Of a stretch of DNA of 20,041 nt, positions 758-18,159 are shown piece by piece. Where the stretch lies: positions 1 through 20,041 of the forward strand of contig JBBSQY010000056.1 of the NCBI GenBank assembly GCA_038243585.1. The letters are read 5' to 3'. The DNA is from Candidatus Sumerlaeales bacterium (GTDB taxonomy: Bacteria > Sumerlaeota > Sumerlaeia > Sumerlaeales > Sumerlaeaceae). The number at the start of each line of letters is the position of its first letter. Within the stretch, counting starts at the first letter, position 1. The position numbers and the translations under genes are program-made. The notes beneath the pieces were generated by a model. The model saw nothing but the letters and a program-made list of their open reading frames with translations. It did no database searches and had not been told where the DNA came from.

Positions 758-3004
758 ATGCTTAACCTCACAATCACAGCAGGTTCTCATAGAGCTGCCG
801 CGGCGCTTATTGCTGCTGCTTTTCTTGTTTTAAATCCAAATGCGGCAACTTCCGGGGTATCGACGAAGGCGGTCAATTCTTATGCTCATAAAGATAGCAC
901 TCCAGCCGACGACCTAGCCCCTCGAATAGATACGGATGGTGCTGGAACGTGGGGCGGACTATGGATGAGTCCCTGGCTAACCAACCCTGCAGGAGGCGGC
1001 GTTAAGTTCTCTCTGAGTAACGACACAGGCGCAACATGGGGCGCTAATTCTGGCCACACCCTGATGCCAGGCCATAACATGATTAGTGCAGATGTTGCCT
1101 ATGCGGGTAATAACAAATGGGTAATTATGGGTATCAGCGAAGACCCTGCAAGCCCTAATGCCTTTCGGAAAGTTAGTTTTATCGTCACTAACGGTGACCA
1201 ACCAACAATAAATCCAAAAGTATTAACCCAAGCTGCTTCGTCTCAGCCATTTCCCTTCAATCAGCTGCAGGTGGTGTCTGACGGAAACGGAAAACTGCTG
1301 GCCAAGTGGCTGCAATTTAGTGAGGGGGTGCGTTATGACCTGGTGTTTTCCCACTCGACAGATTACGGGCAGACCTGGTCTGTCCCGGCAGATGGTTACG
1401 GCATCTATCCCAATTACGATCGTCGGGGTAAAGACGCCAAAATTGCTTACGCCGGCGACGGCATGTGGGTTATTGTATATACTTTTGCGGATGTTGACGG
1501 GAGAAATACGAATGCTGTTGCGCAATCCGATAATATGGGCGTCAGCTGGAACACGGTTGGACGGCTTTACCGGGGCACCGCTTCTGATTTTGAAGAGTCT
1601 CTTTTTGATATAGCGGCGCGGGACGGCAAAGTGGTTATTGCCTCGATGAATGTTTCTGATCCTCGTCCACCGGGCGGGATGGCGTACTCAGTGGCGATCT
1701 ATAACAGCAATGACAGTGGCACGACTTTTACCGGCCCGCTGTGGGTGCCGCGCTCGACATGGAACAGCATTCCAAGCCTCGCTACCGATGCGTCAGGCAA
1801 CTGGCTGTTATCGATATCTCCAAACGATACACGCTTTACTGACGACAACGTCAGCATTTGGAAATCGTCTTCACCAGAGACTACCTGGACCCTCTCGAAC
1901 GTGGTGCCACAAATCGGCAATACCAACGCGGTAGTTGCCGGGTCTGGAAATGGGGAATTTGTGCTGCTTACGGAGCATTATGACTCGCCCGCGACTTTCT
2001 TTAACGCCGATGTGGACATCATGTCCCTAGGTACTGACGACAATGGCACCACCTGGTCGGCTCCTGTTTACGTCAATTCCTCCGCGGCTTCAGACTTAGG
2101 GAAGGTCCATGATACGGGTCACGATATAGACGCCGCCGAAAACATCGTTATGGCCTCCTGGTTGACCAATTTCACCTATCCGCCGGGTATCAGCAGTAGT
2201 AGCACAGTGATGGTCAGCCGTTCGTTCGATCACGGCAAAACGTGGGGTCCGGCTATGGAAATCCCCGGTAGCTTTTTAATGGACTATAGCGGAACTTGGC
2301 TTAATACCTCCATTCGTCATATCAGCCCTGGCACCTGGGAATGCACCTGGCAAGTCAGCAACTGGTCTCCTTATACCTACAAAAAAGTAAAATCAATTGA
2401 CGACGGATTGACCTGGTCTGCGCCCGTCGCAGTAGAAGGTCTTCCTGTCCGAGATCCTTCAGTAGCTAGCGACGGAAGTGGCAATATGGTGAGGGCGCGA
2501 TCTGAAACGATCTTTGATTCCAATACAAGAACGGACACTGTAAATACATACACCGAACTGTCCACCGACAGTGGAGCCACATGGCACTCTAAAGTAAATG
2601 TATTGTCGGAATCCGGTCCATTCATGCAGTGGACATCCCAAAATCGCGATGAGCCTGCCGTGGTCTATCTCGGTGATATGCGATTTGCGGTCCTCGTGCA
2701 GAACATATTTGAAGGCCGAGATTTACCGTACGATGTTAACAGGCTCCAAACCTTTAATCTCTATATAGCGGAATCTAGTAATGGCGGTAACACTTGGTCG
2801 ATACCGACTCCGGTTGTAAAAACCAGCCGAGCTACTCAGAGGTACGAAGCTACTTTGACGGCAGCCGGTAACAACATCATTGTTGGCTGGCAGAAGGGCG
2901 AAACGCCCGGGATTTATGGCTCTCAGGATGAAGGCGATATCTACGCATGGACGAAACGCTTCGGTAATCCCACAGCCGCGCGTGACTGGTCGCTTTTCGA
3001 TTAA
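758..3004 (+). CDS. Secreted BNR/Asp-box repeat beta-propeller protein (sialidase-like fold, activity unknown) with a C-terminal DWxL(F/Y) tail
   Basis: 748-aa ORF with GGAG upstream of the ATG and an N-terminal hydrophobic signal-like segment. About nine S/T-x-D-x-G-x-T-W boxes: SNDTGATW, STDYGQTW, SDNMGVSW, SNDSGTTF, TDDNGTTW, SFDHGKTW, SIDDGLTW, STDSGATW, SSNGGNTW. Ends TAARDWSLFD. Confidence 0.85.
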   Translation: MLNLTITAGSHRAAAALIAAAFLVLNPNAATSGVSTKAVNSYAHKDSTPADDLAPRIDTDGAGTWGGLWMSPWLTNPAGGGVKFSLSNDTGATWGANSGHTLMPGHNMISADVAYAGNNKWVIMGISEDPASPNAFRKVSFIVTNGDQPTINPKVLTQAASSQPFPFNQLQVVSDGNGKLLAKWLQFSEGVRYDLVFSHSTDYGQTWSVPADGYGIYPNYDRRGKDAKIAYAGDGMWVIVYTFADVDGRNTNAVAQSDNMGVSWNTVGRLYRGTASDFEESLFDIAARDGKVVIASMNVSDPRPPGGMAYSVAIYNSNDSGTTFTGPLWVPRSTWNSIPSLATDASGNWLLSISPNDTRFTDDNVSIWKSSSPETTWTLSNVVPQIGNTNAVVAGSGNGEFVLLTEHYDSPATFFNADVDIMSLGTDDNGTTWSAPVYVNSSAASDLGKVHDTGHDIDAAENIVMASWLTNFTYPPGISSSSTVMVSRSFDHGKTWGPAMEIPGSFLMDYSGTWLNTSIRHISPGTWECTWQVSNWSPYTYKKVKSIDDGLTWSAPVAVEGLPVRDPSVASDGSGNMVRARSETIFDSNTRTDTVNTYTELSTDSGATWHSKVNVLSESGPFMQWTSQNRDEPAVVYLGDMRFAVLVQNIFEGRDLPYDVNRLQTFNLYIAESSNGGNTWSIPTPVVKTSRATQRYEATLTAAGNNIIVGWQKGETPGIYGSQDEGDIYAWTKRFGNPTAARDWSLFD

Positions 3005-3031
3005 TTGCGTGGCGTTGTGATGTATTGATTT

Positions 3032-3322
3032 GTAGAGATGCTTCGGGCTTTCAGCCGTGGCGCATTTTTAATACTACCATGCTGGGTTGGTGGACCAGGC
3101 TGGTATGCAAACGCAAATTTGGTGATGAAAACAAAACCAAGTGAATCACACTTAGCCAGATTCAAAAACTTGACCGATGCGCCAGTGGTGGCATGGGAGG
3201 AAATTGCTGCTGAAGCGGTTGTGAAGCCACGCTGAAGCGCGCTTTTCTTTGTTTTCGCTATGGTCACCCCTCATAAATGAGGGTGCAAAGAATAGCGGGC
3301 TAAAGCCAGCCGTGAACACGGC
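3032..3322. repeat. Degenerate REP-like palindromes downstream of the BNR gene
   Basis: GTAG at 3032 followed by GGGCTTTCAGCCGTGGC (3045-3061); an imperfect inverted partner GCCACGCTGAAGC (3226-3238); CCCTCAT-AA-ATGAGGG (3268-3283); GCGGGCTAAAGCCAGC (3295-3310); GCCGTG-AA-CACGGC (3309-3322). The CGGGCTTTCAGCC core recurs at 3627-3639. Confidence 0.45.
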
Positions 3323-3551
3323 AACAGTCATATCGTTGCTTTTTATGTGTCCAGGAGTCTCTGAAGTAAGCCACTCAGTTAAAACTGGACAATTCCTTAC
3401 AGAATGCAGGATGCACGGAACTGAGTTGCGCCCGCCCCCGCGGGCATCTTGGGGCTAAACATCGGACAATCACCGCTCTGGTTAAGTTAAGTTCGAGTTG
3501 GACTGCTCCTAAATCAGTTATTTATAACGTGTCTGCGAACTAATAGTTGGG

Positions 3552-3641
3552 GGTATGGGACGGACTTTCAGCCCTTGATAATAGGGTATGACGAAACCCA
3601 GGCCTGCGGCCTGGGCTGGTATGGAACGGGCTTTCAGCCCT
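3552..3641. repeat. REP-like composite element: two 24-nt direct repeats flanking a perfect hairpin
   Basis: GGTATGGGACGGACTTTCAGCCCT (3552-3575) and GGTATGGAACGGGCTTTCAGCCCT (3618-3641) are 22/24 identical; the second contains the palindrome GGGCT-TTC-AGCCC. Between them lies CCCAGGCC-TGC-GGCCTGGG (3597-3615). Confidence 0.8.
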
Positions 3642-3653
3642 AAGTTGGAGCTT

Positions 3654-3710
3654 TTCAGACGGACTCTCGGCTAATCGACGGGGTCTCAGCGAATCGACGG
3701 GGTCTTGTGA
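3654..3710. repeat. 19-bp-period tandem repeat, three copies (first degenerate)
   Basis: TTCAGACGGACTCTCGGCT / AATCGACGGGGTCTCAGCG / AATCGACGGGGTCTTGTGA. The 14-mer AATCGACGGGGTCT is exact at 3673-3686 and 3692-3705. The array abuts the stop codon at 3711. Confidence 0.75.
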
Positions 3711-6488
3711 TTAGTACAGGGTCCAGTCGTTCACTTTGCTGTCGAGAACTTCGATGTAGTAAACCTCCTGCCCAAGTGGTTCTGCTGAATGCGAGTCTGC
3801 GGAAAAGAACAGGCGATTGCCGAGGACGCCGGCTTCGTTCATGGTGGCACCGGATTTGGCTCCAGGCGCGAAATCCTGGATGAGATTTATGCCGCCGGCA
3901 TAACCAACAGTGCGATAGAGTTCGCGACCGAGACTTGCTGTTGTACTTGCCAGGTACATAAACCCGTTTACCTCTGCCAGCAATTGTGGCTCTGAAGACA
4001 GGGGGCCCTGGAAAACATTCCGGGTCCCTGGGACAGTTCCATTACTGTAGTTCAAATGGTATTTGTATTGCGAGGGATTTAAGCCACTGAGACTGACGCC
4101 CATGTAATAAACCCCTCCGTGCTGGCTCTGCAGTAAGTCTAGCCCGTCACCGTTAATAAAGGCCGGCATGATGGATGATACCTGGGTGGTTCCGGCTACG
4201 GTTCCGTCTGTCATCCATAAACTGGTGGTGGTGCTGGAATCGCTGGCGAAGAAATAGACACGGTTTCCCGCACTGGTAAAGTGGCTGGGCGATGATCCGG
4301 TGATGCCCGGCACTATGTCAGCTAGTAATGAGGTTCCCTGGGGAGTGCCATCGGATATCATGATTTCTTCCCCGGTTCCGGTTCCGGTAGCGCCAAAGAC
4401 AATGCGTCCGTCAGGCAGCGCAGCTCCTTCGGTTGGCGGCGTGGAGGATTGCAAGATTTCGCTGGTGCCTGCAGCTGTCCCGTCGGTCGTGATTACCCGG
4501 TAATTCGGTGGGGAGGGGTTGCTGTCCGGAGCATAAAAGAGACCCCATGATCCGCTGGCGCCGATGAGGCGCAGCGGGTAGGATGATGTGACCAGAGCCG
4601 TCGCCGGGATGTCTTCTGTTCCGGCGACAGTTCCATTGCTTTTGTATAGGACTGGATAATCATCTCCCGTTGCGCCACCGAAGTAACAATAGTCGCCCAG
4701 TTCAAAAAGTTTAGTTGGGCGTTTGGGCGCGTGTGCCGGCGAGCTTTGCACAATCTCCGTTGGTGGGGCGCTGGTTGAGTTTCCGCTTGTTATATAGACC
4801 TTGCCATCCCCATAGTATCGCCCGTCCTCCCAGTGGCTGTAGTCGCTGTAGAATAGGGGGCCGTTCGGAGTGACACCCAGCCATTCGGCGTTGGGCGCCT
4901 GTATCTTCATCGCTGTATAAGGATTATCAATTCTATAGGATGCTCGAGTCGATTGGGTTTGAGGCAGGCCTTCGGTAAAGAATAACCGATTGCCGGCTTT
5001 GATGAAATTCGTTGGGTTTATGCTTAACGGGATATTATTAAAACGCGTCAGTCTTATCGGTGCATTGGAGTTCTGGGAATTTGCGATAAAGATATTTTCC
5101 GTCTGGTTTTGATCAAAAGACAACAAGTTAAAGACCGGATTTCCGTTGAACAGTGGGAGTTGACCGCTCGAAAATCTGGCATAGGGTGAGGTCTTAGCGA
5201 CTAGTATTGCGCTGGCCAGAGGACCGTTAATGCGAAAAATCCCGCTCGTGGTAGACAGGTATGTCCCAGCCGGAGTCGGAAAGGCGGCTCCGATATCCGC
5301 GAACGGCAAGCCGGGCGGGACGGCAACCGGAACAGAGTAACCATCTGAGACGTATAACACCATCGTGCTATTTGCCTGATTAAAGCCAGAGATATACAGA
5401 CTATCATTTACCCAGGCCAGTTCGGCCGGTATTGCTTGAGAATCTGGCAGATTAGGGAGTACGCGGGTGGTGACGCCATCACTGGCGTGGATGGTGGAAC
5501 CGGTTTGCTGCTTTACCCAAAAGAAGTCTGTGCTGGATTCGGTGCGGGCGCCGCCCTGGCTCATGTCGAAAGAAACCGGGAGATCGAGAGAGAGGGTACG
5601 GGTGCCGGTTAACGTGCCGTCCGTCACAAAGAATGGGGTTACACCGTCGCTCCCGTTAACACCGAAAAAACATTGTCCCAACGCACGAACCATTTCTACC
5701 TTTTTGGTGGAGGGGGAAGTGAGGGTGTATAATAGCTGGGTTCCTGTGGCAGTGCCATCGGTTCTGTAAAGGCTCGCTGTTTTGCCGGCATCCTCATATA
5801 TAAAAAAAAGAAGAACATCGCCCAGCAGACGCGTGGGACCAACGGCCGGGATGGCCGTCGCTTCTGGCCGCATAAATGAGATGAAGGTGGTGATCTCTGT
5901 GCCGTCACTGGTGGCGGTTTGCAGTCGACCGACCTCATACCCCGAGGAATAACGAGCTTTTCGGACGAAGCAAATATTGCCTCCACTGCCTGACCAGGTG
6001 GCGAAGGGGGAAGTCCCTTCGATTTCGTCGGATGCATATTCGGTTTTGCCGGTGGCGCCATCAAGTTTCGCGTAACGAAAAACCAGATCATCGGGACTCT
6101 GAGGAAAAATGGCCTTTCCATCGACAACAGCAAAAAAAGGATGGTCTGCCAAGCCGACGGCATCGCGCGGGCCCGGTTGTCCTGTATCTCCGAATGTGGC
6201 CGCGGATCCCATACGCATTCCAATTCCCTGATCAGGGCTGATAAGGTTTGGGAAATTCATGTAATAGCCGTCAATGGTATTAGGATTCAAGTTTCCACGA
6301 CGCGATACCACGTAGATGCTGTCGGTGGTGGTTCTTATTTGCGACACGACTCTTGCATCATTCTGCCAGTAACTTAGCTTATGTGACAGGAGATTTATAG
6401 GCTGTGAGCGGGCTGTGGCCGAAAATGCCAGGACTATTCCTGTTACTGCTAAAAGACGAATGTATCGAAAAAGCTGGTTCGTGCGCAA
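3711..6488 (-). CDS. Secreted ELWxxDGT-repeat beta-propeller protein with a C-terminal DWxLY tail
   Basis: 925-aa ORF with a TTG start preceded by AGGGGA and a signal peptide (MRTNQLFRYIRLLAVTGIVLAFSATARS). Repeats: LYRTDGTATGT, FFVTDGTLTGT, LYKSNGTVAGT, VITTDGTAAGT, GEEIMISDGTPQGTSLLADIVPG, LWMTDGTVAGT, GRELYRT. Ends SKVNDWTLY. Confidence 0.88.
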   Translation of the reverse strand: MRTNQLFRYIRLLAVTGIVLAFSATARSQPINLLSHKLSYWQNDARVVSQIRTTTDSIYVVSRRGNLNPNTIDGYYMNFPNLISPDQGIGMRMGSAATFGDTGQPGPRDAVGLADHPFFAVVDGKAIFPQSPDDLVFRYAKLDGATGKTEYASDEIEGTSPFATWSGSGGNICFVRKARYSSGYEVGRLQTATSDGTEITTFISFMRPEATAIPAVGPTRLLGDVLLFFIYEDAGKTASLYRTDGTATGTQLLYTLTSPSTKKVEMVRALGQCFFGVNGSDGVTPFFVTDGTLTGTRTLSLDLPVSFDMSQGGARTESSTDFFWVKQQTGSTIHASDGVTTRVLPNLPDSQAIPAELAWVNDSLYISGFNQANSTMVLYVSDGYSVPVAVPPGLPFADIGAAFPTPAGTYLSTTSGIFRINGPLASAILVAKTSPYARFSSGQLPLFNGNPVFNLLSFDQNQTENIFIANSQNSNAPIRLTRFNNIPLSINPTNFIKAGNRLFFTEGLPQTQSTRASYRIDNPYTAMKIQAPNAEWLGVTPNGPLFYSDYSHWEDGRYYGDGKVYITSGNSTSAPPTEIVQSSPAHAPKRPTKLFELGDYCYFGGATGDDYPVLYKSNGTVAGTEDIPATALVTSSYPLRLIGASGSWGLFYAPDSNPSPPNYRVITTDGTAAGTSEILQSSTPPTEGAALPDGRIVFGATGTGTGEEIMISDGTPQGTSLLADIVPGITGSSPSHFTSAGNRVYFFASDSSTTTSLWMTDGTVAGTTQVSSIMPAFINGDGLDLLQSQHGGVYYMGVSLSGLNPSQYKYHLNYSNGTVPGTRNVFQGPLSSEPQLLAEVNGFMYLASTTASLGRELYRTVGYAGGINLIQDFAPGAKSGATMNEAGVLGNRLFFSADSHSAEPLGQEVYYIEVLDSKVNDWTLY

Positions 6489-6715
6489 AGTTTTTGTCCC
6501 CTGTTAATTTCAATCTACCTGATCATGATATGACATACGCGCGGACGGGCAATAGTTTTTTGGGTTGAGGATCAAGTTATTCCGCAGAAATTAAGATCGA
6601 AAATTATTAGCATAAGGATCTCATGACCTGAAATGGCTGGTCCCTGGTTGATAAAAAGTTGAGTGAAAAACGAGTTGTTTTTCAGCTGGGAACGGAAATC
6701 GTTACGGTGACTGGC

Positions 6716-8158
6716 ATGACTAATACGACCGCCATAGTATGGTTTCGACGGGACTTGCGCCTAGCTGATAACCCCGCTTTTTTTGAAGCGCTGAAGCTTT
6801 TTGAGACGGTCGTGCCCGTCTACATTTGGTCGCCCGAGGAGGATTCTCGCTGGGCACCTGGGGCGGCCAGTCGGGTTTGGCTTTATCATTCACTGGAAGC
6901 TTTGGCTAATGCCATGGCAGAAAAACAAAGCAGGCTTATTTTGCGCCGGGGAGAGGCGCTGCCGGCGCTTCAAACCTTGATTAAGGACACTGGGGCGACG
7001 GCGGTTTTTTGGAACCGACTGTATGAACCTTCGGTTAATGAGCAGGATGCAGGCGTGGAAAAGGCGCTGCGAAGCGACGGGGTCGAGTGTGAAATTTTTC
7101 CGGGGAATCTTTTGCTGGAGCCATGGGATTCCAGAAAGAAAGATGATACAGCGTACCGGGTGTTTACGCCTTTTGCGAACGCCCTTAAAGAAAAGCTGGA
7201 TGACATCAAAGCGGACCCGGCGCCTGGTGTGATGTCGGCGGTACCGCCGGAAATTTACTCGGACGACCTTGAGTCGTTCGATCTTCTGCCGAAGATCGAG
7301 CGGGCAGGGGGAATTCAAGAAGCATGGACGTTTGGCGAAGCGGGAGGGCAGGCGGCGCTTAAGGATTTTATACAGAACGGGCTTGGCGGTTATAGCAAAA
7401 CCCGTAATTTGCCCGCGATGGAGGATGGGGTGTCGCGGTTATCTCCGTATCTGCATTTTGGCGAGATCAGTATCAGGCACGTTTGGGCGGACGTATCAAA
7501 AGCCCGCGCGAAACTGTCGGGGGCGGAACAGAAATCGGCGGACGTTTATCTTAAGGAATTGCTTTGGCGGGAGTTCAGCCATCATCTGCTATTTCATTTT
7601 CCGACCATGCCGGATAAGCCGCTTCGGGAAGAGTTTTCCCGGTATCGTTGGGCCACGTCGGGCACTCAATTGAAGGCCTGGCAGCGTGGGCAAACCGGGT
7701 ACCCCATCGTCGACGCGGGTATGCGGCAACTTTGGGAGACTGGGTGGATGCACAATCGCGTTCGCATGATTGTCGGGTCGTTCCTGATCAAAGATCTGGG
7801 TATCGAATGGCAGACGGGTGAGGAATGGTTTTGGGATTCCCTGGTGGACGCGGACCTGGCGCAAAATGCCATGAACTGGCAGTGGGTTGCGGGCTCAGGC
7901 GCGGACGCATCGCCGTTTTTTCGGATCTTTAATCCGGTCACGCAGGGAAAGAAGTTCGATCCTGAGGGCGAGTATGTTCGGCGATATGTGCCGGAGCTGA
8001 AGGACATGCCGGCTAAGTGGATTCATGCGCCTTTTGATGCACCGGGAGAGGTGCTGGAGGGAGCGGACGTTAAGCTGGGGGATAATTATCCGAAGCCGAT
8101 TGTAGATCATGACGAGGCGCGCAAACAGGCGCTGGCGAACTATCAGAAGATTCGTTAG
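6716..8158 (+). CDS. phrB: Deoxyribodipyrimidine (CPD) photolyase
   Basis: IVWFRRDLRLADNPA N-terminal motif, VSRLSPYLHFGEIS, ELLWREF, WQRGQTGYPIVDAGMRQLWETGWMHNRVRMIVGSFL and WQWVAGSGADASPFFRIFNP. The start is moved from the track's 6659 to ATG 6716 because the family motif begins a few residues later. Confidence 0.95.
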   Translation: MTNTTAIVWFRRDLRLADNPAFFEALKLFETVVPVYIWSPEEDSRWAPGAASRVWLYHSLEALANAMAEKQSRLILRRGEALPALQTLIKDTGATAVFWNRLYEPSVNEQDAGVEKALRSDGVECEIFPGNLLLEPWDSRKKDDTAYRVFTPFANALKEKLDDIKADPAPGVMSAVPPEIYSDDLESFDLLPKIERAGGIQEAWTFGEAGGQAALKDFIQNGLGGYSKTRNLPAMEDGVSRLSPYLHFGEISIRHVWADVSKARAKLSGAEQKSADVYLKELLWREFSHHLLFHFPTMPDKPLREEFSRYRWATSGTQLKAWQRGQTGYPIVDAGMRQLWETGWMHNRVRMIVGSFLIKDLGIEWQTGEEWFWDSLVDADLAQNAMNWQWVAGSGADASPFFRIFNPVTQGKKFDPEGEYVRRYVPELKDMPAKWIHAPFDAPGEVLEGADVKLGDNYPKPIVDHDEARKQALANYQKIR

Positions 8159-8185
8159 AAGTGGTTAAACTTTTAAGTCGGGATG

Positions 8186-8343
8186 GTGGGATGGGCATTT
8201 TTGCCCGTCTGGCAAAACGAGGAAGCTAATTGTGCTGTTATCTTTGCGCGGGTTTGTGGTTGTTACGGTGGCGATTGGCGGTGGGTTTGACCGTTTTCTT
8301 TGGTGGTTTCGCCCACTGAGACGGGCAGGAATGCCCATCCTAC
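8186..8343. repeat. Inverted REP doublet (REPIN-like) between convergent phrB and radA
   Basis: GTGGGATGGGCATTTTTGCCCGTCT (8186-8210) and AGACGGGCAGGAATGCCCATCCTAC (8319-8343). The reverse complement of the second is GTAGGATGGGCATTCCTGCCCGTCT, 22/25 identical to the first. Each has a GTAG/GTGG foot plus an internal GGGCA...TGCCC palindrome. Confidence 0.85.
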
Positions 8344-8355
8344 ATTTTGATACTT

Positions 8356-9744
8356 TTAATATATCTCCAGGGCCTTTAGTGCGTCGCCGACATTTTTTAC
8401 TCCGATGATTTTAATGCCCGCGGGGGCGCGGTTTTTTTGCCACGGCGCTGTCACGGCGCGCGTAAATCCCAGCCTTGCGGCTTCGGCGAGGCGTTTGTCG
8501 AGGTGGCTGACGCTGCGGATTTCTCCGGCCAGGCCGACCTCTCCCAACACTACTGTTTTTTGATCAATCGCCACTCCCTGAAAGCTACTGACCATGGCGC
8601 TGAGGGCTGCCAGATCGGCGGCGGGTTCTTCCACTTTTACGCCACCGGCGATATTGACGTAGACGTCCTGATCAAACATCCTCAGGCCGATCCGCTTTTC
8701 CAGCACGGCGATAAGCAGGGCCACGCGGCGCTGGTCCAGGCCGTTGGCGGACCGACGCGCCGCGCCGAAACCGCCGTTGGGGGCAGTGAGCGCCTGTATC
8801 TCCACCAGCAGCGGACGCGTGCCTTCCAACGCGGGAACCACTACGCTTCCGCTTGCGCCTTCCGGGCGTTCCTGGAGAAATAATTCGCTCGGGTTTTTTA
8901 CTTCCGCCAGGCCGCTGCCGCCCATTTCAAAAATCCCGATTTCGTTTGTTGATCCGAAGCGATTTTTTACGGCCCGCAGAATTCGGAAATTGTGGTGCTG
9001 ATCGCCCTCAAAGTAGAGCACTGTATCCACCATGTGTTCCAGCACTCGTGGACCCGCGACCACACCGCTTTTCGTTACGTGACCTACCAGGAACAGCGGC
9101 ACATGGATGTGTTTGCACAGCGTGATAAGGTGCGCTGCGGAATCCCTTATTTGCGAAACGCTGCCGGGCGCGCTTCCGGATTCCTCGCTCCAGGCGGTTT
9201 GAATGGAATCAAGAATGACGCAGGAGGGGCGTACCGCCTGGATGTGTTCGCCGATGGTTTCTACCTGGGTTTCGCCCAGACAAAGCAAGTGTTCAGATAC
9301 CGCGCCGAGGCGACCTGCCCGCAGGCGCGTCTGTTCAAGGCTTTCTTCACCGCTTACGTATAAAGACGGCGAACCGGCACCGGCCATTTGCAGAGCAACC
9401 TGTAACATCAGCGTGCTTTTGCCGATGCCGGGCTCGCCGCCGATCAGCGTTACGGAACCGGCCACGATTCCTCCGCCGAGGATGCGGTCAAATTCATCGA
9501 TGCCGGTCATGCGGCGCGTCTCCGCAAGCACGTCGACCTGATTCAGCGGAATCGGTCCGGGGCGAACGCCGCCCACTCCCCCGCCTCTAAATAGATTTTT
9601 GGTCGCCGTCTTGCTTTTCTCAGAGGCCACTTTTTCTTCCACCAGCGTATTCCACTGGCCGCATGAGCTGCACTTGCCTTCCCAACGGGGAAAACTGTCG
9701 CCGCATTCCTGACACACAAACTGAATCTTCTGCTTCGTAGCCAA
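8356..9744 (-). CDS. radA: DNA repair protein RadA/Sms
   Basis: Zinc finger CQECG...WEGKCSSC, Walker A GGEPGIGKST, KNRFG motif and Lon-like C-terminus (DVYVNIAGG, GEVGLAGEIR). The likely start is TTG at 9744 with AGGAG at 9756-9752, rather than the track's 9795. Confidence 0.97.
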   Translation of the reverse strand: MATKQKIQFVCQECGDSFPRWEGKCSSCGQWNTLVEEKVASEKSKTATKNLFRGGGVGGVRPGPIPLNQVDVLAETRRMTGIDEFDRILGGGIVAGSVTLIGGEPGIGKSTLMLQVALQMAGAGSPSLYVSGEESLEQTRLRAGRLGAVSEHLLCLGETQVETIGEHIQAVRPSCVILDSIQTAWSEESGSAPGSVSQIRDSAAHLITLCKHIHVPLFLVGHVTKSGVVAGPRVLEHMVDTVLYFEGDQHHNFRILRAVKNRFGSTNEIGIFEMGGSGLAEVKNPSELFLQERPEGASGSVVVPALEGTRPLLVEIQALTAPNGGFGAARRSANGLDQRRVALLIAVLEKRIGLRMFDQDVYVNIAGGVKVEEPAADLAALSAMVSSFQGVAIDQKTVVLGEVGLAGEIRSVSHLDKRLAEAARLGFTRAVTAPWQKNRAPAGIKIIGVKNVGDALKALEIY

Positions 9745-9856
9745 ACTGTTGCTCCTGAGATTATTAGTTGCGGTTGGTACAGACTTGCTTTTCAACGGAT
9801 TTTTCTAATGAACCAACAATATAGTATCTGGATTACGTGATAAGGAGCTACCATTT

Positions 9857-10048
9857 ATGACTAGTTTAAAATATGTCTTTTGGAAAGAAGACGAGGCCTG
9901 GCTCGGATACCTGGTAGAATTTCCGGATTACTGGACGCAGGGGGAAAGCGAGGTTGATCTCAAGGAACATCTCGTTGACCTTTATAAAGATCTGACCAGT
10001 GGAGCAATTCCAAGTATACGGAAAGTGGCGGAACTAAGCGTCGCGTGA
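9857..10048 (+). CDS. hicB: HicB-family antitoxin (short form, no obvious DNA-binding domain)
   Basis: 63 aa, acidic, YVFWKEDEAWLGYLVEFPDYWTQGESEVDLKEHL matches the HicB partial RNase H fold pattern. Strong RBS TAAGGAG. Its stop overlaps the hicA start (GTGA). Confidence 0.88.
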   Translation: MTSLKYVFWKEDEAWLGYLVEFPDYWTQGESEVDLKEHLVDLYKDLTSGAIPSIRKVAELSVA

Positions 10049-10224
10049 AACGGAAAGACTTAATCAGGGCTTTGGAAGAAGCTGGATGCGTTTTAATTCG
10101 ACATGGTGGAAAACATGATTGGTTTCAGAATCCAGCAACTAAGCAATCACAACCGGTGCCGCGACACCGTGAAATAAATGAAATGCTGGCGAAGCAAATC
10201 GTTAAAATGCTCAGCAATAAATAG
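10045..10224 (+). CDS. hicA: HicA-family mRNA interferase toxin
   Basis: Not in the ORF track (59 aa). GTG start at 10045: MKRKDLIRALEEAGCVLIRHGGKHDWFQNPATKQSQPVPRHREINEMLAKQIVKMLSNK*. It is basic and has the G-x-H catalytic His and VPRH motifs typical of HicA. Confidence 0.93.
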   Translation: MKRKDLIRALEEAGCVLIRHGGKHDWFQNPATKQSQPVPRHREINEMLAKQIVKMLSNK

Positions 10225-10285
10225 TGTTGAAGCGCCTTTGAAATTACTAACTCGCAAAACCAGTAAAAGTCCTAGAGCATTAGCA

Positions 10286-11191
10286 TCAGTTCAGACACGA
10301 TGCGTGCTGTTCCAGGCTGCGCCGCTTCTGACAGGCGCCGTGCAGTTCGCATTTATCACATTGTCGCAAGTCTGATTTAGTCGGACACAATTTTAAGATT
10401 CCCAGGCGGCACAGAGAAAAATCGAACCGCGTTGGATCGATTGGGTCTATTAATCGCAGCTTCCGAGTCACGTCTCGTGCGAACTCCAGCGATGCCGCTT
10501 TGCGGGTGCTGAAGCCGAGGTTTGTACTTAGCCGCATAATATGGGTATCTACGGGCACCAGCAGCAGCGACGTGGGAATTGTGTTCCACAGACCCAGGTC
10601 GATCCCATCGTCTGCGCGGATCATCCAGCGCAAAAACAGATGGATGCGCTTGCATGCGCTGCCTTTGTCAGCCCTCGGCATCAGATGCTTGAATGAGGAT
10701 CTTGTTGTCATTACTGAGCGGTCAAAATGGGGCTCGAAAGAAAAAGAATGCAGGTAATCGAAGAAACGTCCGGCGGCCTGCGCGAGGTCTGTTTCCTGGT
10801 CGCGAATACCTTCGCAGAAACCGGACTCCAGCGATTGTCGCTGTACGGCCTGATGCAATAGCCAGCACAGGCACAGAATGTCCTCTTCGTCCGAGAATCG
10901 ATGCTTGAAGCCCGCCAGCGCCTGTCGCGCGGAAAGGATTTCAAAATTCCGGATGAACTGCCCTGGCCTGCTGCCCATCGCAGAAAACAGCCGCGCCAGA
11001 CTGGCGTTGATTTGCTTCACATTCCCATAGGCCAGAAGAGCGGCGAAAAGGGCCGCTATCTCCCGGTCTTCTGTGCACGTGAATTCGCGAACCATAACCA
11101 GCGGATCGCTGCCCAGGTATACGGGCTGGTGGTAACGTTCGTATACGGATTCCAGAAAGGGTCCGTATGGGGTATGGACTGGCTTGGTCAT
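10286..11191 (-). CDS. TIGR02757/DUF2400 family protein (HhH-GPD-related) with a C-terminal 4-Cys cluster
   Basis: SDPL...DREIAALFAALLAYGNVKQI, SACKRIHLFLRWMIRADDGIDLGLW, LLVPVDTHI and DPIDPTRFDFSLC are characteristic of the family. C-terminal C-x8-C-x2-C-x5-C. Confidence 0.88.
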   Translation of the reverse strand: MTKPVHTPYGPFLESVYERYHQPVYLGSDPLVMVREFTCTEDREIAALFAALLAYGNVKQINASLARLFSAMGSRPGQFIRNFEILSARQALAGFKHRFSDEEDILCLCWLLHQAVQRQSLESGFCEGIRDQETDLAQAAGRFFDYLHSFSFEPHFDRSVMTTRSSFKHLMPRADKGSACKRIHLFLRWMIRADDGIDLGLWNTIPTSLLLVPVDTHIMRLSTNLGFSTRKAASLEFARDVTRKLRLIDPIDPTRFDFSLCRLGILKLCPTKSDLRQCDKCELHGACQKRRSLEQHASCLN

Positions 11192-11342
11192 TATGATTAC
11201 TTTACAGCTTAGTACGGAAAAAGCTCAGGGTCATAAAGGCTCAGCGCATAACATTGATTTGATGGGCTGGGCGCTTATAAGTTTTTTCGGTTCAGGTGAG
11301 GTGATGTTCTCACAGTCGGGACGCCTATGTTAAGTCTGTTTA

Positions 11343-12752
11343 CTAATGCACCCGGACCTGGGTGCCGCACTTTCGGCACTGGATCATCGGGGCTGAAAAC
11401 ATTGGGCTTAGCTGAAGGATGTTTCCGCACTGGCAGGGAAAGCTTTCCCATGTGTTCAGGGCGCTTCGTGTGTGATCCATAAAGACGGGCTCCGGCTTCA
11501 GTTCCAGATTCAACGCTGTATCGCCATCGTACCCAGGGGCGTTTGCGGTTGCACCAGTCGCCGGCACATCGTTCGCCACGCCGCATCGGATGCACCGAAC
11601 CGTTGCCTCGTTATAGGTGCTCGGCACCTTCAGCGTCGCACCGCATTGGCAATGGATGTCAGTGTACCCAAATAGACGATGGACGACAGCCTTTGATTCT
11701 GCCCTGGTCTCCAGCGGCGGCTCGTTGGATGCCTGGCGGATCGCCTGTGCCTTGCTCTCATGCAGAGTATGGGTCCCGATAATGGATTCCCGTTTTTTTA
11801 CCGCGCCGTAAGATTTGTTGTAGTCCAGAAAAGACGCGCCGCCCATACCACGCAACACCTGCACGCGATCAAACAGGGGCGGATGGGTGGAGAACATGCT
11901 GTCTGAGCCGCCATCCGCCGCTAACGGGTTTACGATAAACATGGGTGCTACCGCGCGATTGACTTCTCCCATGGGGGTTCCCGACCCAGCGATCTGCAGC
12001 AGTGCCGACGCCAACCCTTCGGGATAGCGCGTGTACACCGCCGCAGAAGCATCGGCGAGATATTCGCGGACTCTCGACATGGCAAAATAGAGTACCCGGG
12101 CCAAAATTGGTCCCAGGACAATCAACAGCACAGCCACTACGAGAAAGATTATCTGCGCCTGACCGCCGCCGTCACCGCCACGGCTGTCGGACCTGCGCCG
12201 ACCTCGTCCGCCATAGAAAAACATCCGCATGGCCATATCCGACAGGATGATGATAGACCCGAGCATGACCCCGGCCAGGGTCATGAATTTCGTATCCATG
12301 TTTTTCAGGTGGGCAATCTCGTGGGCAATGACACCTTGCAGCTCGTCGCGATTTAGCCGGTACATGAGGCCCCGCGTTACCGCCACTGCGCTGGTTTCCG
12401 GTTTCCGTCCTACGGCGAAGGCGTTGGGCGAGTCCGAATCGACAATGTAAATCTTTGGCATGAAGGTCAGGCCGGAAGCCAGTTGCATTTCTTCGACGAT
12501 GTTGAAAAGCCGTGGACTCTCGTCCCGCGTCAGTTCTCGCGCGCCCATTCCCGCCATTAATACGGATTCGCCTGCGACGGCATAAACCGCCAACTGCACC
12601 AAGAGCACGATCAGCCCTATAAGCAGACCGACCGGCCCCGCACCGGGTTGGAAGGCTTCCGCTGCAAAATAACCAATGGACAACAGAATCAGGCCCATCA
12701 GCACAATCAGCCAGAAAGATTTACGCTGGTTCGCGCGTATCTGCTCCCACAT
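11343..12752 (-). CDS. htpX: HtpX-like M48 membrane zinc metalloprotease with a C-terminal double zinc-ribbon extension
   Basis: N-terminal TM helices, PNAFAVG, ELQGVIAHEIAH (HExxH), SRVREYLADA and FSTHPP. A C-terminal extension carries two C-x-C...C-x2-C motifs. Confidence 0.9.
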   Translation of the reverse strand: MWEQIRANQRKSFWLIVLMGLILLSIGYFAAEAFQPGAGPVGLLIGLIVLLVQLAVYAVAGESVLMAGMGARELTRDESPRLFNIVEEMQLASGLTFMPKIYIVDSDSPNAFAVGRKPETSAVAVTRGLMYRLNRDELQGVIAHEIAHLKNMDTKFMTLAGVMLGSIIILSDMAMRMFFYGGRGRRRSDSRGGDGGGQAQIIFLVVAVLLIVLGPILARVLYFAMSRVREYLADASAAVYTRYPEGLASALLQIAGSGTPMGEVNRAVAPMFIVNPLAADGGSDSMFSTHPPLFDRVQVLRGMGGASFLDYNKSYGAVKKRESIIGTHTLHESKAQAIRQASNEPPLETRAESKAVVHRLFGYTDIHCQCGATLKVPSTYNEATVRCIRCGVANDVPATGATANAPGYDGDTALNLELKPEPVFMDHTRSALNTWESFPCQCGNILQLSPMFSAPMIQCRKCGTQVRVH

Positions 12753-12781
12753 GATTCAGGAAGTTCGGTTCCGCATAAAGC

Positions 12782-13348
12782 TCAAAAGGTCACTTTCGGG
12801 GCTTCACGCTGTTCCGGTTCGATTACCTCGAAAAACGGCTTGCGCTCAAAATTGAACATCCCAGCGACAATGTTGGCCGGGAAGGTCTCGCGCTGGTTAT
12901 TATACTGCAATACGCGGTCGTTGAAAAACTGACGCGCGAAAGCAACCTTGTTCTCCGTGCTTGTAAGCTCCTCTTGCAAAGCCAGAAAGTTTTGGTTGGC
13001 CTTCAAGTCCGGGTAGGCTTCCGATACCGCAAACAAACTTTTCAGCGCGCCGGTGAGCATATTCTCTCCCGCCATCCGCTCTTCCAGATTTGTCGCCCCC
13101 ACCGCCATGTTTCTCGCCTGTATTACGCGCTCGAGGGTTTCTCGCTCGTGGGACGCATAGCCTTTCACGGTCTCAACCAGGTTTGGAATCAGGTCGGTGC
13201 GGCGTTTTAGCTGCACATCAATCTGCGCCCATGAATTTTGTATTTCGTTTCGCAGCCGAACGAGGCTATTGAAAATCCCTACGGCCCAAAGAGCCAAAAT
13301 GATTAATATTGCGGCAATTATCAGTAATGCGATTATTCCACCAGTCAT
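12782..13348 (-). CDS. lemA: LemA family protein
   Basis: N-terminal TM anchor; FNSLVRLRN, WAQIDVQLKRRTDLIPNLVETVKGYASHE, EAYPDLKANQNFLALQEELTSTENKVAFARQFFN and FPANIVAGMFNF. Confidence 0.96.
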   Translation of the reverse strand: MTGGIIALLIIAAILIILALWAVGIFNSLVRLRNEIQNSWAQIDVQLKRRTDLIPNLVETVKGYASHERETLERVIQARNMAVGATNLEERMAGENMLTGALKSLFAVSEAYPDLKANQNFLALQEELTSTENKVAFARQFFNDRVLQYNNQRETFPANIVAGMFNFERKPFFEVIEPEQREAPKVTF

Positions 13349-13821
13349 GCTTTGCCGTCTCCCTTATTATTTATGATAAACTTTTCAGATGGCGCGTGGG
13401 GCTCCACGGCGTAACAGCCAAGAACTTCGCTGAGCAGAGCCAAGGCTCCTGTGGCCGACATGGAATCCGGTAACGATTTCAACAGCAGAAGCAACTCATT
13501 TTTGTCAAACCACACGCCGTCATTGCCGGGGCATCGGTCAAGGCGCAATTCCTCGCCATCTGCGCCCCTGCGGACGACTTCCTTTAAGGCGCGGTCGCAG
13601 CGTGGACATAAGTAGGCAGGGCGTCCGGTTTCAGAGCGCACGTCCGCTTCCACAAATTCCTGAAAACAATCGGTACCGACGCCGCCTGTGCGCTCCAGCA
13701 ATCTCTCAATCTCGCCATGGTCCAGCCACAAACCCTCGCAGGATGGGCAGTAATCCACCTCTACCCCTTTAAACTCAAGAAGGATCAGCGCAACATCGCA
13801 TTTGGGGCAGACAACGATCAT
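13345..13821 (-). CDS. Tandem zf-TFIIB-like zinc-ribbon protein
   Basis: Two copies of CPxC...(V/L)DxCP...G(L/V)W(L/F)DxxE: CPKC..VDYCPSCEGLWLDHGE and CPRC..LDRCPGNDGVWFDKNE. RBS AAAGGA. ATGA overlap with lemA. Confidence 0.85.
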   Translation of the reverse strand: MIVVCPKCDVALILLEFKGVEVDYCPSCEGLWLDHGEIERLLERTGGVGTDCFQEFVEADVRSETGRPAYLCPRCDRALKEVVRRGADGEELRLDRCPGNDGVWFDKNELLLLLKSLPDSMSATGALALLSEVLGCYAVEPHAPSEKFIINNKGDGKA

Positions 13822-13905
13822 AAACGTAATCCTTTTCGCTCCACGCCGCGTATTTCAATAGTTTTCACCATATGCCTCAGCGGGGATAAATCTTGCGGTA
13901 AATGG

Positions 13906-14652
13906 TTAATCTATAACTGTCCGCGCGTAAGCCAGGCATTCTACGGATTCCGCGCCGGCTTCGCGCAAGGTCCGGGCGCATTCGTTTAGTGTGCTACCGG
14001 TCGTGTAAACATCATCAATCAGCAGCACCTTTTTACCCGCCACGGCCGCAGAATCCTTACACGCAAAGGCACCTGCGACGTTTTTGCGCCTTTGACTTTT
14101 TTTCAGGCTGGTTTGGGACGAGGTTGGTCTGGTTCGTACCAGGGCCTTTTCTGAGACGGGAATGGTCAAACTTTCTCCGAATGGTCTGGCGATCAGCGCT
14201 GATTGATTAAAGCCGCGATCGCGCAGCCGGGTGGAATGAAGGGGAACAGGCAGGACAATGTCGGCTATGGGAGCGCCGTCATTTACGGCTTCTCTGTATA
14301 TCCGCGCCATTTCTCGGGATAGCAGGGGCGCGTATTCGATTCTTCGCTGATATTTTAGCCTATGGACGAGGACTTGGGCGATGCCGGAAAACCGGGCGAC
14401 GCCCTGGGCCTTGATAAAATAGGCGGTGCCGGGAGGGCAGTTTGCGCAGCGGCCTTCTTCTTTTATTTTCGCATCGGGGCAACCGCACCGTGCACAGATG
14501 GGAAGCAGAAGCGGCGGGATGGAATCGAGGCATGGCCTGCAAACAAGCCATGCCTCGTCGAGAATTCGTTCTCCGCAACCGCAGCAAAGCCGCGGAAGCA
14601 GAAAATCCAGTACGTTGTTCCATATATTACGGATAGGGGATGTTTCGATCAC
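13906..14652 (-). CDS. comF: ComF family protein (double zinc ribbon plus phosphoribosyltransferase domain)
   Basis: [62 protein letters not shown]. The GTG start overlaps the pgk stop (GTGA). Confidence 0.93.
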
Positions 14653-15845
14653 GCCTCCGAAAGCGCTTCAATTCCGGGCAGAGTTTTGCCTTCCAAGTAT
14701 TCCAGAGAGGCTCCGCCACCGGTGCTGATGTGAGTCATTTTGTCGGCAAAACCGAATTTAAGTGCGGCAGCTGCACTGTCGCCGCCGCCAATTACTGTTA
14801 CGGCATCACTGGCCGCCATGGCCTCGGCCACTTTGCGGGTTCCATTTGCAAACGGTTCCAGTTCAAACACACCAACAGGACCATTCCAGACAATTGTTTT
14901 AGCTTTTTCAATCTCAGCCGTAAACAGTTTCACGCTTTCCGGGCCTATATCCACGCCCATCCAGCCATCGGGAATTTCATTTGCGGGAACGATTTTCGTA
15001 GGTGCGCTGGCATCCGGGCGATCGTCTGACTGGCAGGCAACGCAGTCCACCGGAAGCAAGAGTTTCTTGCCCAGAGTTTTCGCCTGCTCCAAGGCCTTTT
15101 TTGCGTCTTCCAGTGTATCTTCTTCGAATAGGGAATTGCCGATGGAGCCGCCCTGTGCCTTTACAAAGGTGTAAGTCATTCCGCCGCCCAGCATCAACAC
15201 GTCCACCTGCTGAAGCAGGCTGTCTATGACGTTGATCTTAGACGAAACTTTCGAGCCACCCAAAATGCCCACATACGGCCGCTCTGGCTTCCCAAGGGCT
15301 TCCCCCAGGTAACGGAGTTCCTTTTCCACTAGAAGTCCGCCGACGCTTTCAGGCACGTGCTTTGTAATGCCCACGGTGCTGGCATGAGCGCGATGGACGG
15401 ATCCAAAAGCGTCTTGCACAAAAATATCCGCCAAACTTGCCAGCTTTGCCGCAAACGCATCGTCGTTCTTTTCCTCTTCCGGATGAAACCGGACGTTTTC
15501 CAGCAATAGAACGTTTCCCGGCTGAAGATTAGCCACGGCGTTTTCTGCTTCTGGTCCGATGCAGTCCGTTGCGAAAGCGACAGGCGCTCCAAGCAGCTCA
15601 GACAAGCGTTCCGCCGCGGGCTTCAGACTGAATTCCGGCTTTACAGAGCCTTTGGGGCGACCCATGTGGGACGCAAGAATCACTTTGGCGTTGTTTTCAA
15701 TGAGATACCGGATCGTGGGTAGCGCCCCTTGGATACGGCTATCATCGGTAATTTTTCCATTTTCCATGGGGATATTGAAGTCTACTCGAACGAAAACGCG
15801 TTTCCCGGAAATATCATTGAGATCGCGAATGGTTTTTTTTGCCAA
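14649..15845 (-). CDS. pgk: Phosphoglycerate kinase
   Basis: [56 protein letters not shown] and [18 protein letters not shown] start preceded by GGAG. Confidence 0.99.
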
Positions 15846-16779: not shown

Positions 16780-18159
16780 ATGACTTTTGGAAAAACAGAG
16801 CGCATGGTGGCGGTCGTCATCGGCATCGTAGCCCTTGCGGCGACTATTCATTTTCTGATATTTCAGAAAAAAGCCGAGACGTATAACCAGACAAGCCAGG
16901 AATATACGGCCGCGGTAGAGCAACTGTCGACGGCAGAATTCATACGGAACCAGCAAGCATTTGAAGAGTATAAGCAACGCACCAGTCAATACTCGGACCT
17001 GGTGACTAGCGTAGTCGACGAGTTAAACCTTGTTAAGCTGGACCTGCCTACCTCACCACCGGTGGGAGCAGTCGACCGGTGGGCTTCCGGGACAATTGAA
17101 TTGCTCACAAAGCTGACGGCAGCGCCGCCAGCCAATCTGCAATTGCCGTTTCTTGGAAAAGATGGCTGGGACCTGTCGGCGCAATTGCCGGCGGTGGGGG
17201 GTGCGGGGGCCCTGGCAGATCGAGTCAGCCAGTTAAATGGCACCTATCAGGAATTGCAGGTCGCCAAAGGCAACGTCCAGGCAGAGTGGCAGGTGCTGAA
17301 AAACTATAATGCCCGCCTGACAGCACTGGGCGTAAACCCGCAGCAGGTTTCCAACTTCTATTACCCGGCAGGTGGTGGGCTGTTTTTCAATAATGAGGAA
17401 TGGATTAAGGCGGTATTAAGTCAGTCTGGCGCGAGCCGGATGGCTACGTCTAACGACTTGCAGCCTTATTATAACATTTATGGTTTGCAGCGTTTTGGGC
17501 AGGCAATTCCGGTGCTAAAGAAGATATGGCTTTATGCGCTTGTCAGCCGCGCGATGCAAGCCCAGAACCCGGAAACGGTTCGCGTTGATCCGAATATTCT
17601 TCCGCGGTTTGGTGAGGCGCTCCAGATAGGCGTTCCGCTAGAGGATGAACCCCTCAACAGCATTAATAAGCAATTGACCGCCCTGCTGGATATTATAGCG
17701 ATTGCAGGCCAGACCGGCATTCAGGAAATACAACAGGTTCGCTTCATGCGCCCAATAAATGTGGGCAAGGCAACATTGAGAGTGCCGGGAGCGCTGCCAC
17801 CCGTGACTACACCAGCGCCTACTCCGGCAAATGCTATGGGTGGAATGGGTATGGGTATGATGGAAATGGGATTGATGGGCGGAATGGGCGGCCCGAATGC
17901 CCAGCCGATGGTAACTCCAATCCCAGACGCGGAACGTGTTGGTACCGGGGCTGGAATAGAACTGGTCTTAAAAGCAGACAACGCCAGCTTAACGCGGTTC
18001 TACTATCAGCTAAGTCACGTTACCCGCACTTACGGAATCGATGATCTGTATGTTTATAGCTCTCCCCAGGGAGTGTTTACCACCGCGACTGTTGAAGTAA
18101 TAACGGATATTAATACACAGGGCACCGCCGGCGCGGCACCTGCAGAGGGAGCAATTTAA
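16780..18159 (+). CDS. Membrane-anchored hypothetical protein (N-terminal TM, coiled coil, Met/Gly-rich insert; possible PilO/GspM-like C-terminus)
   Basis: 459-aa ORF. TM segment MVAVVIGIVALAATIHFLIF, a helical heptad-like stretch, and PPVTTPAPTPANAMGGMGMGMMEMGLMGGMGGP. The CDS is well supported; the PilO-like call is only an architectural impression. Confidence 0.75.
   Translation: MTFGKTERMVAVVIGIVALAATIHFLIFQKKAETYNQTSQEYTAAVEQLSTAEFIRNQQAFEEYKQRTSQYSDLVTSVVDELNLVKLDLPTSPPVGAVDRWASGTIELLTKLTAAPPANLQLPFLGKDGWDLSAQLPAVGGAGALADRVSQLNGTYQELQVAKGNVQAEWQVLKNYNARLTALGVNPQQVSNFYYPAGGGLFFNNEEWIKAVLSQSGASRMATSNDLQPYYNIYGLQRFGQAIPVLKKIWLYALVSRAMQAQNPETVRVDPNILPRFGEALQIGVPLEDEPLNSINKQLTALLDIIAIAGQTGIQEIQQVRFMRPINVGKATLRVPGALPPVTTPAPTPANAMGGMGMGMMEMGLMGGMGGPNAQPMVTPIPDAERVGTGAGIELVLKADNASLTRFYYQLSHVTRTYGIDDLYVYSSPQGVFTTATVEVITDINTQGTAGAAPAEGAI

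Follow-up and report, generated by a model that had tools for sequence, protein, structure and literature searches.

Why would two unrelated secreted proteins, encoded side by side in convergent genes, end in almost the same nine residues? The question is raised by a 20,041-nt stretch of DNA (here, "the window") from a Candidatus Sumerlaeales bacterium (contig JBBSQY010000056.1, assembly GCA_038243585.1). A protein with BNR (Asp-box) repeats, encoded on the forward strand, ends in T-A-A-R-D-W-S-L-F-D plus stop (2972..3004, +), and a protein with ELWxxDGT repeats, encoded on the reverse strand, ends in S-K-V-N-D-W-T-L-Y plus stop (3711..3740, −), with each tail at the stop codon of its gene. 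An original prediction, made from the letters of the window, had proposed that these tails are a lineage-specific sorting tag on large passenger proteins, read by uncharacterized machinery. We find that the tail is a multi-phylum C-terminal tag on exported proteins, without an entry in the catalogues, and very probably a sorting or docking signal. It is modular and strictly C-terminal, its carriers are exported cargo, and its genes show a genetic linkage to those of pilins. Whether it is a linear tag for export by, or docking on, a machine of the type IV filament class, which is the reading we favor, is a more evenly balanced matter.

The two passengers differ in their repeats. The BNR-repeat protein (758..3004, +; 748 aa) matches BNR_2 in Pfam (PF13088, E 2.8e-14) and no family in NCBIfam, and the ELWxxDGT protein (3711..6488, −; 925 aa) matches TIGR04534 (E 3e-29). 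Both pass a home-made signal-peptide heuristic, with Sec-type signal peptides at approximately 758..850 (+) and 6405..6488 (−; TTG start). Reading the sequence thus bears out the two tails on secreted proteins of different repeat type; they score 23.4 and 28.6 bits, respectively, with the position-specific scoring matrix (PSSM) described below.

The window tails belong to a much larger set. In the source genome (G000; 3.43 Mb in 99 contigs, 89.7% complete), genes were taken as guesses based on open reading frames (ORFs), which gave 2,614 crude genes. (In labels, G is a genome, C a contig of G000, f a family in Sumerlaeota, L an inspected protein, and P a homologue.) A loose regular expression matches 67 of 13,708 ORFs, 50 of them at least 300 aa long, and the two passengers are the sole ORFs of their contig among the matches; no other protein of the window ends this way. 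A strict expression matches 55 of 2,336 termini; among 896,091 internal pseudo-termini it matches 6, a rate that predicts 0.016 matches per gene set, so that termini are enriched ~3,500-fold. When the last 40 residues were shuffled 200 times, the mean number of strict matches was 0.005, and there was at most 1. Chance is therefore excluded. Our working set comes from a PSSM built from 60 seeds and run on the 2,614 crude genes; one degenerate twin-arginine (Tat) protein (C34:32256) was dropped from the 81 members, and degenerate or extended copies (e.g., C1:58022, C20:45434, and C28:13040) were left out, leaving 80 carriers. Internally, the PSSM exceeds 12 bits at 4 of 979,326 positions, the best of which lies 6 residues from an end. 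Tail genes are not clustered with each other (6 versus 5.0 expected).

The consensus tail is [STA]-x-[VAI]-x-D-W-x-L-[YF] plus zero or one residue, on ~80 of the 2,614 crude genes. Numbering from the tryptophan, which is present in 78/80 tails, position −5 is S, A, or T in 78/80, position −3 is V, A, or I in 78/80, position −1 is D in 51/80, position +2 is L, I, V, or M in 75/80, and position +3 is Y or F in 80/80, counts that partly reflect the selection of the set. The motif first proposed holds overall but not in its [ST] after the tryptophan, a position that proves variable (S in 19, Q in 13, A in 11, T in 10, and E in 10 of 80, plus others). Zero to four residues follow the aromatic (48, 30, 1, and 1 of 80), with zero or one in 78/80, and one perfect copy has six. 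Lysine or arginine occurs among the last five residues of 3/80 tails.

The tail is far from confined to the two window proteins: the 80 carriers form 45 unrelated single-linkage clusters, with a median length of 548 aa. Their range, from ~180 to 2,246 aa, means that the idea of a tag on large passengers survives as a modular tag on exported proteins, but not as one reserved for large ones. A strict signal-peptide heuristic is passed by 60 of 75 carriers versus 402 of 1,719 other proteins of ≥250 aa (p 1e-23), the enrichment that the original prediction had asked about and a difference from type I secretion, whose substrates lack an N-terminal signal peptide. (A looser heuristic passed about half of all genes; the stricter version was used for comparisons.) A transmembrane (TM) helix in the mature protein is found in 1 of 75 carriers versus 373 of the 1,719 others. 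Pfam scans of 42 carriers identified enzymes (GH43, GHL10, reprolysin-like and M23 peptidases, amidases, nucleases, and phosphoesterases) and modules (lamin-tail [LTD], golvesin, FG-GAP, BNR, and ice-binding domains). Two DUF1501-type proteins with degenerate tails (G000:C1:58022-60922 and C34:32256-33596) have twin-arginine leaders, which fits a route for folded cargo; the upstream partner gene of the former has no tail. Nine homologues were found for the small tail protein L149, and every one has the tail. A PIG-L deacetylase (G000:C65:12821-13591) has a perfect tail and no detectable signal peptide; its start may be miscalled, or it may be exported together with a partner.

The tail also appears to be separate from the fold that precedes it. 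Among 120 ELWxxDGT relatives listed, three have the tail, namely P0012, a paralogue, and the query itself. Among the 119 listed besides the query, 26, homologues in other phyla, have a different known module: a C-terminal domain (CTD) of the type IX secretion system (T9SS) in 9, SLH in 6, RTX in 6, and dockerin in 5. In local alignments to the window protein, 75 of the 119 stop just short of the tail, at residues 910-916; another 26 extend a few residues further, often onto internal repeats, and 3 reach the end of the protein. Because alignments of relatives stop before it, the tail probably lies outside the ELWxxDGT repeat fold. G000 has two ELWxxDGT paralogues (C98:364-3249 and C46:2132-4876), and the C98 copy is identical to the window protein over its last 15 residues; a scan of viral contigs with the ELWxxDGT protein found no relative.

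Is the tail already known by another name? In Pfam, NCBIfam, and the PDB, no entry matches any of 41 tails, so the check for an existing model leaves the tail uncovered. NCBIfam does contain two motifs of 10–11 positions, NF050076 (sort_motif_YLP) and NF053834 (ultrashort_CTERM), which, compared by name, length, and cut-off, are likewise C-terminal and named sorting signals; a very short C-terminal sorting tail as an idea therefore has catalogued examples already. Neither model, however, matches the 41 tails. In G000, NF053834 has 0 matches at E ≤ 10 (control positive in 10), and NF050076 has one match, below the cut-off, in a 25-aa frame that is not a tail. The T9SS CTD (TIGR04183, PF18962) resembles the tail in being a genome-wide C-terminal tag on similar Sec-exported enzymes and adhesins, and in occupying the same slot in homologues, but it is a folded domain of ~70 residues, as opposed to 9 residues here. 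It matches neither the window proteins nor the 41 tails, and the same model is positive on homologue P0029; a TIGR04183 search of the genome was blank, with its control also silent. LPXTG, PEP-CTERM, GlyGly-CTERM, and MYXO-CTERM are similarly modular C-terminal tags on many unrelated exported proteins, but these are tripartite signals, whereas the carriers here have no TM helix and no basic tail, and end 0–4 residues past the motif. The claim that the tail has neither a TM helix with a basic end nor a T9SS CTD is thus upheld. We found no description of the motif in the literature searched, which covers few subscription papers; in the main text of papers on Sumerlaeota (PMC8092238) and Hinthialibacterota (PMC9324843), the term "C-terminal" was not found.

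The tail is not lineage-specific, as had been supposed, but occurs in at least two phyla. In Sumerlaeota, with which the original prediction had tentatively associated such tails, and fittingly so, a strict DNA pattern is found in 63 of 75 genomes, with ≥5 matches in 36 (reversed control, 0–4); the pattern accepts TGG in the stop position, so a few matches are not true termini. In families f2–f8, this pattern is at background level, and a variant, [ST]-x-[AVT]-x-x-W-x-x-Y-x-stop, has 134 matches versus 39 in the control (18 genomes), with translated examples flanking pilin genes. Families f14 and f16 and parts of f7 and f13 are low with both patterns. A second phylum, probably Hinthialibacterota/OLB16, has the strict tail in 35 of 35 genomes (≥6 matches in 32). 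In a third (five genomes), there are 1–9 matches, clearly above control in one genome, and six genomes from further phyla have 0–1. In two f2 genomes (G002 and G003), exported proteins L027, L032, L036, L039, and L040 end in a dockerin-like repeat; W-tails are present in these genomes too.

What might read the tail? The strongest lead is its genomic association with pilins. G000 has 41 pilin-like genes, 26 of which form one family, PNFLEAQ, with a conserved N-terminus (F1 and E5 invariant), a middle that varies, and two conserved motifs, SxGPD and YDxTNGTxSxG. A PNFLEAQ pilin scores above the cut-off for TIGR02532 and below it for the GspG equivalog (44.7 versus 88.85 bits). Its structure was modeled with a pLDDT (predicted local distance difference test) score of 88.9 from a 150-row alignment (46.5 with 19 rows); the fold matches CofA (Z 7.5), EpsG (Z 6.6), and PulG (Z 6.0), with no Foldseek match at E ≤ 0.001. 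Judged by a class III signal with Glu5 and a predicted pilin fold, PNFLEAQ is a family of type IV pilins. A pilin gene adjoins 10 of 80 tail genes, versus 1.9 in random sets of exported genes (as many in 0 of 2,000 draws) and 7 of 306 strict-signal genes without the tail (p 5e-4). All 10 adjoining pilins are of the PNFLEAQ family; in 8 of these pairs both genes have the same orientation, and the gaps range from −17 to 293 bp; the 15 other pilins have no tail gene within two genes. The association recurs in five well-assembled relatives, where a pilin on the same strand, at most 5 kb upstream or 0.7 kb downstream, accompanies 10 of 69 tail sites versus 1.36 expected, and none has one on the opposite strand; the expectation accounts for position only, not for exported genes, and the five are non-independent kin. 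PNFLEAQ pilins occur in 75/75, 35/35, and 5/5 genomes of the three tail-bearing phyla.

Other parts of a filament machine are present as well. G000 has a full gsp-like operon, three secretins, and a PilMNOPQ-like cluster, and GspK is found in 72 of 75 Sumerlaeota genomes and in 35 of 35 of the second phylum. In Sumerlaeota, GspK ends in a strand of the type [VI]-x-[QEDH]-W, resembling the first half of the tail; this ending occurs in 2 of 2,256 non-tail proteins of G000, one of which is GspK. One secretin (L151; G000:C32:28553-33631) is 1,692 aa long and has TPR repeats, and its middle region is conserved in 71 of 75 Sumerlaeota genomes; it is a candidate reader. Besides GspK, G000 encodes three large PilK/PilX-like proteins of 640–803 aa (C15:49439-51850, C18:32250-34172, and C73:2219-4384); a PilX_N profile found nothing above its cut-off. 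The C18 and C73 genes come after PilV/PilW-like pairs.

Two known systems suggest how such a tail could work. First, the last ~10 residues of PilC/PilY1 add a β-strand to PilK (PMC13533445), and PilC tails have a conserved tryptophan and a hydrophobic residue at W+3 (PMC13711793). Like the tail, the C-terminal strand of PilC/PilY1 and MshQ comprises ~10 terminal residues protruding from a folded, Sec-exported protein without a TM helix (PMC13533445; PMC13711793); in PilC/PilY1, it has the same tryptophan and W+3 hydrophobic residue, at or one residue from the end, and is linked to type IV filament genes. The tails of G000 have this spacing (W in 78/80, Y/F at +3 in 80/80, and 0–1 residue after it in 78/80). 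There are also differences: (i) PilC/PilY1 proteins are one or two PF05567-type tip adhesins per genome, whereas the carriers here are ~80 unrelated enzymes; (ii) PilC/PilY1 needs a PilK/PilX lacking its last strand, and no such PilK was found here; (iii) the PilC tryptophan is followed by charged residues, rather than by a variable residue and then L; (iv) the linked genes here are GspG-like pilins with Glu5. PF05567 had no match in 42 carrier scans (19 + 23, of ~80 carriers), and a PilY1 search of the genome was blank, with its control also silent. Second, TcpF of Vibrio cholerae and CofJ of enterotoxigenic Escherichia coli are periplasmic proteins with a short linear signal that is portable; the minor pilins TcpB and CofB read it, and export through a secretin follows (PMC10120004). 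That signal, however, is N-terminal on the mature protein, with one substrate per system, in type IVb pili, whereas the tail is strictly C-terminal and genome-wide. In the major pseudopilin, a loop that varies has an effect on which proteins are secreted (PMC13081927). In how it works, the tail finds its closest parallels in the PilC/PilY1 tail and the TcpF signal, yet it belongs to neither group.

We favor the docking-tag reading because the tail has the PilC spacing and because Sumerlaeota GspK ends resemble its first half. Under this reading, cargo would enter the periplasm via Sec (in a few cases via Tat) and fold, with the last ~9 residues following the last strand of the fold after a linker of 2–5 residues. 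The tail would then dock on a type IV filament subunit, a groove of which would receive V(−3), W, and Y/F(+3), probably by the kind of β-strand addition seen for PilC/PilY1, and the filament would take the cargo through a secretin for release or surface display. If a filament machine is the reader, the GspG-like pilins are the foremost candidates, albeit short of an even chance, with the GspIJK tip and a secretin or GspC-type component somewhat less likely and on a par with each other. The fullest version, in which a nine-residue signal loads dozens of folded enzymes onto a type II secretion system (T2SS) or type IV filament, with the expanded GspG-like pilins as carriers or adaptors, in two to three uncultured phyla, is one we put forward tentatively and regard as rather doubtful. 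The "uncharacterized recognition machinery" of the original prediction may go too far, given that type IV filament components are the candidates with the best linkage; its proposal that the tail drives outer-membrane translocation or anchoring is an inference.

Several observations weigh against filament docking. T2SS payloads need no strand addition on PilK, and GspK of the T2SS supplies its own strand (PMC13533445). The same seems true here: judged by sequence, 30 of 30 GspK proteins, along with three further PilK-like proteins of G000, seem to have their own last strand, so that no strand-less PilK acceptor was found among the K-like proteins examined, with G000 itself 89.7% complete. In the second phylum, the 16 GspK ends examined have no tryptophan, though the tail is identical there. 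Seventy of 80 tail genes, including both in the window, lack a pilin next to them, as 16 of 26 PNFLEAQ pilins lack a tail gene. The number of tails does not rise with that of pilins: in G070, the pilin pattern has 127 matches and the two tail patterns have 1 and 0, and the third phylum has 27–51 pilins versus 1–9 tails per genome. Pilins of one subfamily adjoin unrelated cargo, and among 276 pilin homologues there is no fusion to the tail and no terminus that matches it. Of the 365 proteins of ≥250 aa that pass the strict signal test and are not membrane proteins, 59 at most bear the tail. Lastly, co-transcription of pilin and tail genes could reflect shared regulation of nutrient-capture loci.

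That last possibility is part of the alternative that survives best, and which we consider improbable but worth serious attention: the tail would be a non-covalent surface-retention tag. Whatever the export route, it would then bind a scaffold, S-layer, or outer-membrane protein in the manner of dockerin or SLH modules, with the pilins merely co-regulated neighbors. In its favor, dockerin (5) or SLH (6) modules occupy the tail slot in homologues, dockerin-like ends and W-tails coexist in family f2, and the majority of tail genes lack a pilin neighbor. However, nine residues are small for a cell-wall anchor, the pilin linkage is strand-specific and replicated, and the 246 non-pilin neighbors of tail genes include no recurring family, scaffold or other.

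It is less probable again that the tail is read by a periplasmic TPR or PDZ domain of a chaperone, protease, or transpeptidase, with cleavage or linkage to a surface molecule to follow. Binding of C-terminal peptides is a property of TPR and PDZ domains, and the TPR region of the 1,692-aa secretin, with its widely conserved middle region, would be an example of a reader. Yet 0–4 extra residues are tolerated after the aromatic, and six in one perfect copy, which would be atypical if a free carboxylate were being recognized. Attachment would also be sortase-type chemistry without a TM anchor, and exosortase (PF09721) was not found in G000 or in 66 of 75 genomes (control positive in 1; there was no search for sortase, rhombosortase, or myxosortase). 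Within Sumerlaeota, PF09721 occurs in all seven f8 genomes (G013–G019) and two genomes of f1 (G058 and G060) only.

Quite unlikely is a signal for a β-barrel translocon unrelated to type IV filaments, whether T9SS-like, BAM/TAM-like, or new. The terminal aromatic recalls the β-signal of outer-membrane proteins, the cargo types overlap those of the T9SS, and 9 homologues end in a T9SS CTD; but the cargo consists of soluble enzymes, not barrels, and the window proteins have no T9SS CTD by a model that does match a homologue. SprA (PF14349) was found in 0 of 5 genomes, with the control silent in all, so its absence is not established. Finally, that the motif is the structural end of a fold or an effect of chance or composition is very improbable: both window proteins are repeat proteins and probably propellers, but the 45 unrelated clusters include non-propeller folds, 117 of the 119 listed ELWxxDGT relatives do not have the motif, which argues at the level of sequence against a propeller-closing strand, and the motif is ~3,500-fold enriched at termini.

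Between the convergent genes of the window are three imperfect 24-nt repeats (3035-3058, 3552-3575, and 3618-3641) that look like repetitive extragenic palindromic (REP) elements; a gene elsewhere in the genome (G000:C73:10446-11036) resembles that of a REP-associated transposase. The genes at 6659-15845 look ordinary, and by eye we take them to encode a photolyase-like protein, RadA, an HtpX-like protease, LemA, a ComF-like protein, and phosphoglycerate kinase. A 459-aa protein encoded at 16780-18159 (+) weakly matches the Amuc_1100 pilus-like family (E 0.002); its gene is separate from contig C32, which has the PilM-like gene and the 1,692-aa secretin, and from its sequence it may be part of a third type IV filament system.

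Taken as a motif, the tail adds a type of C-terminal signal that lacks both a membrane helix and a folded domain. Should its reader turn out to be something other than a pilin, the likely exoproteome of two uncultured phyla could still be defined by the motif, with nothing but sequence needed. How the T2SS chooses its folded substrates is described as poorly understood (PMC10120004), and a tag common to ~80 cargoes is a direct handle on that choice. The tag also suggests a testable purpose for the 20–130 variable pilin genes of these genomes. If the fullest version of the docking-tag reading is true, the substrates of a T2SS-type system would share a linear signal across the whole genome, in a generalized form of the PilC/PilY1 docking strand.

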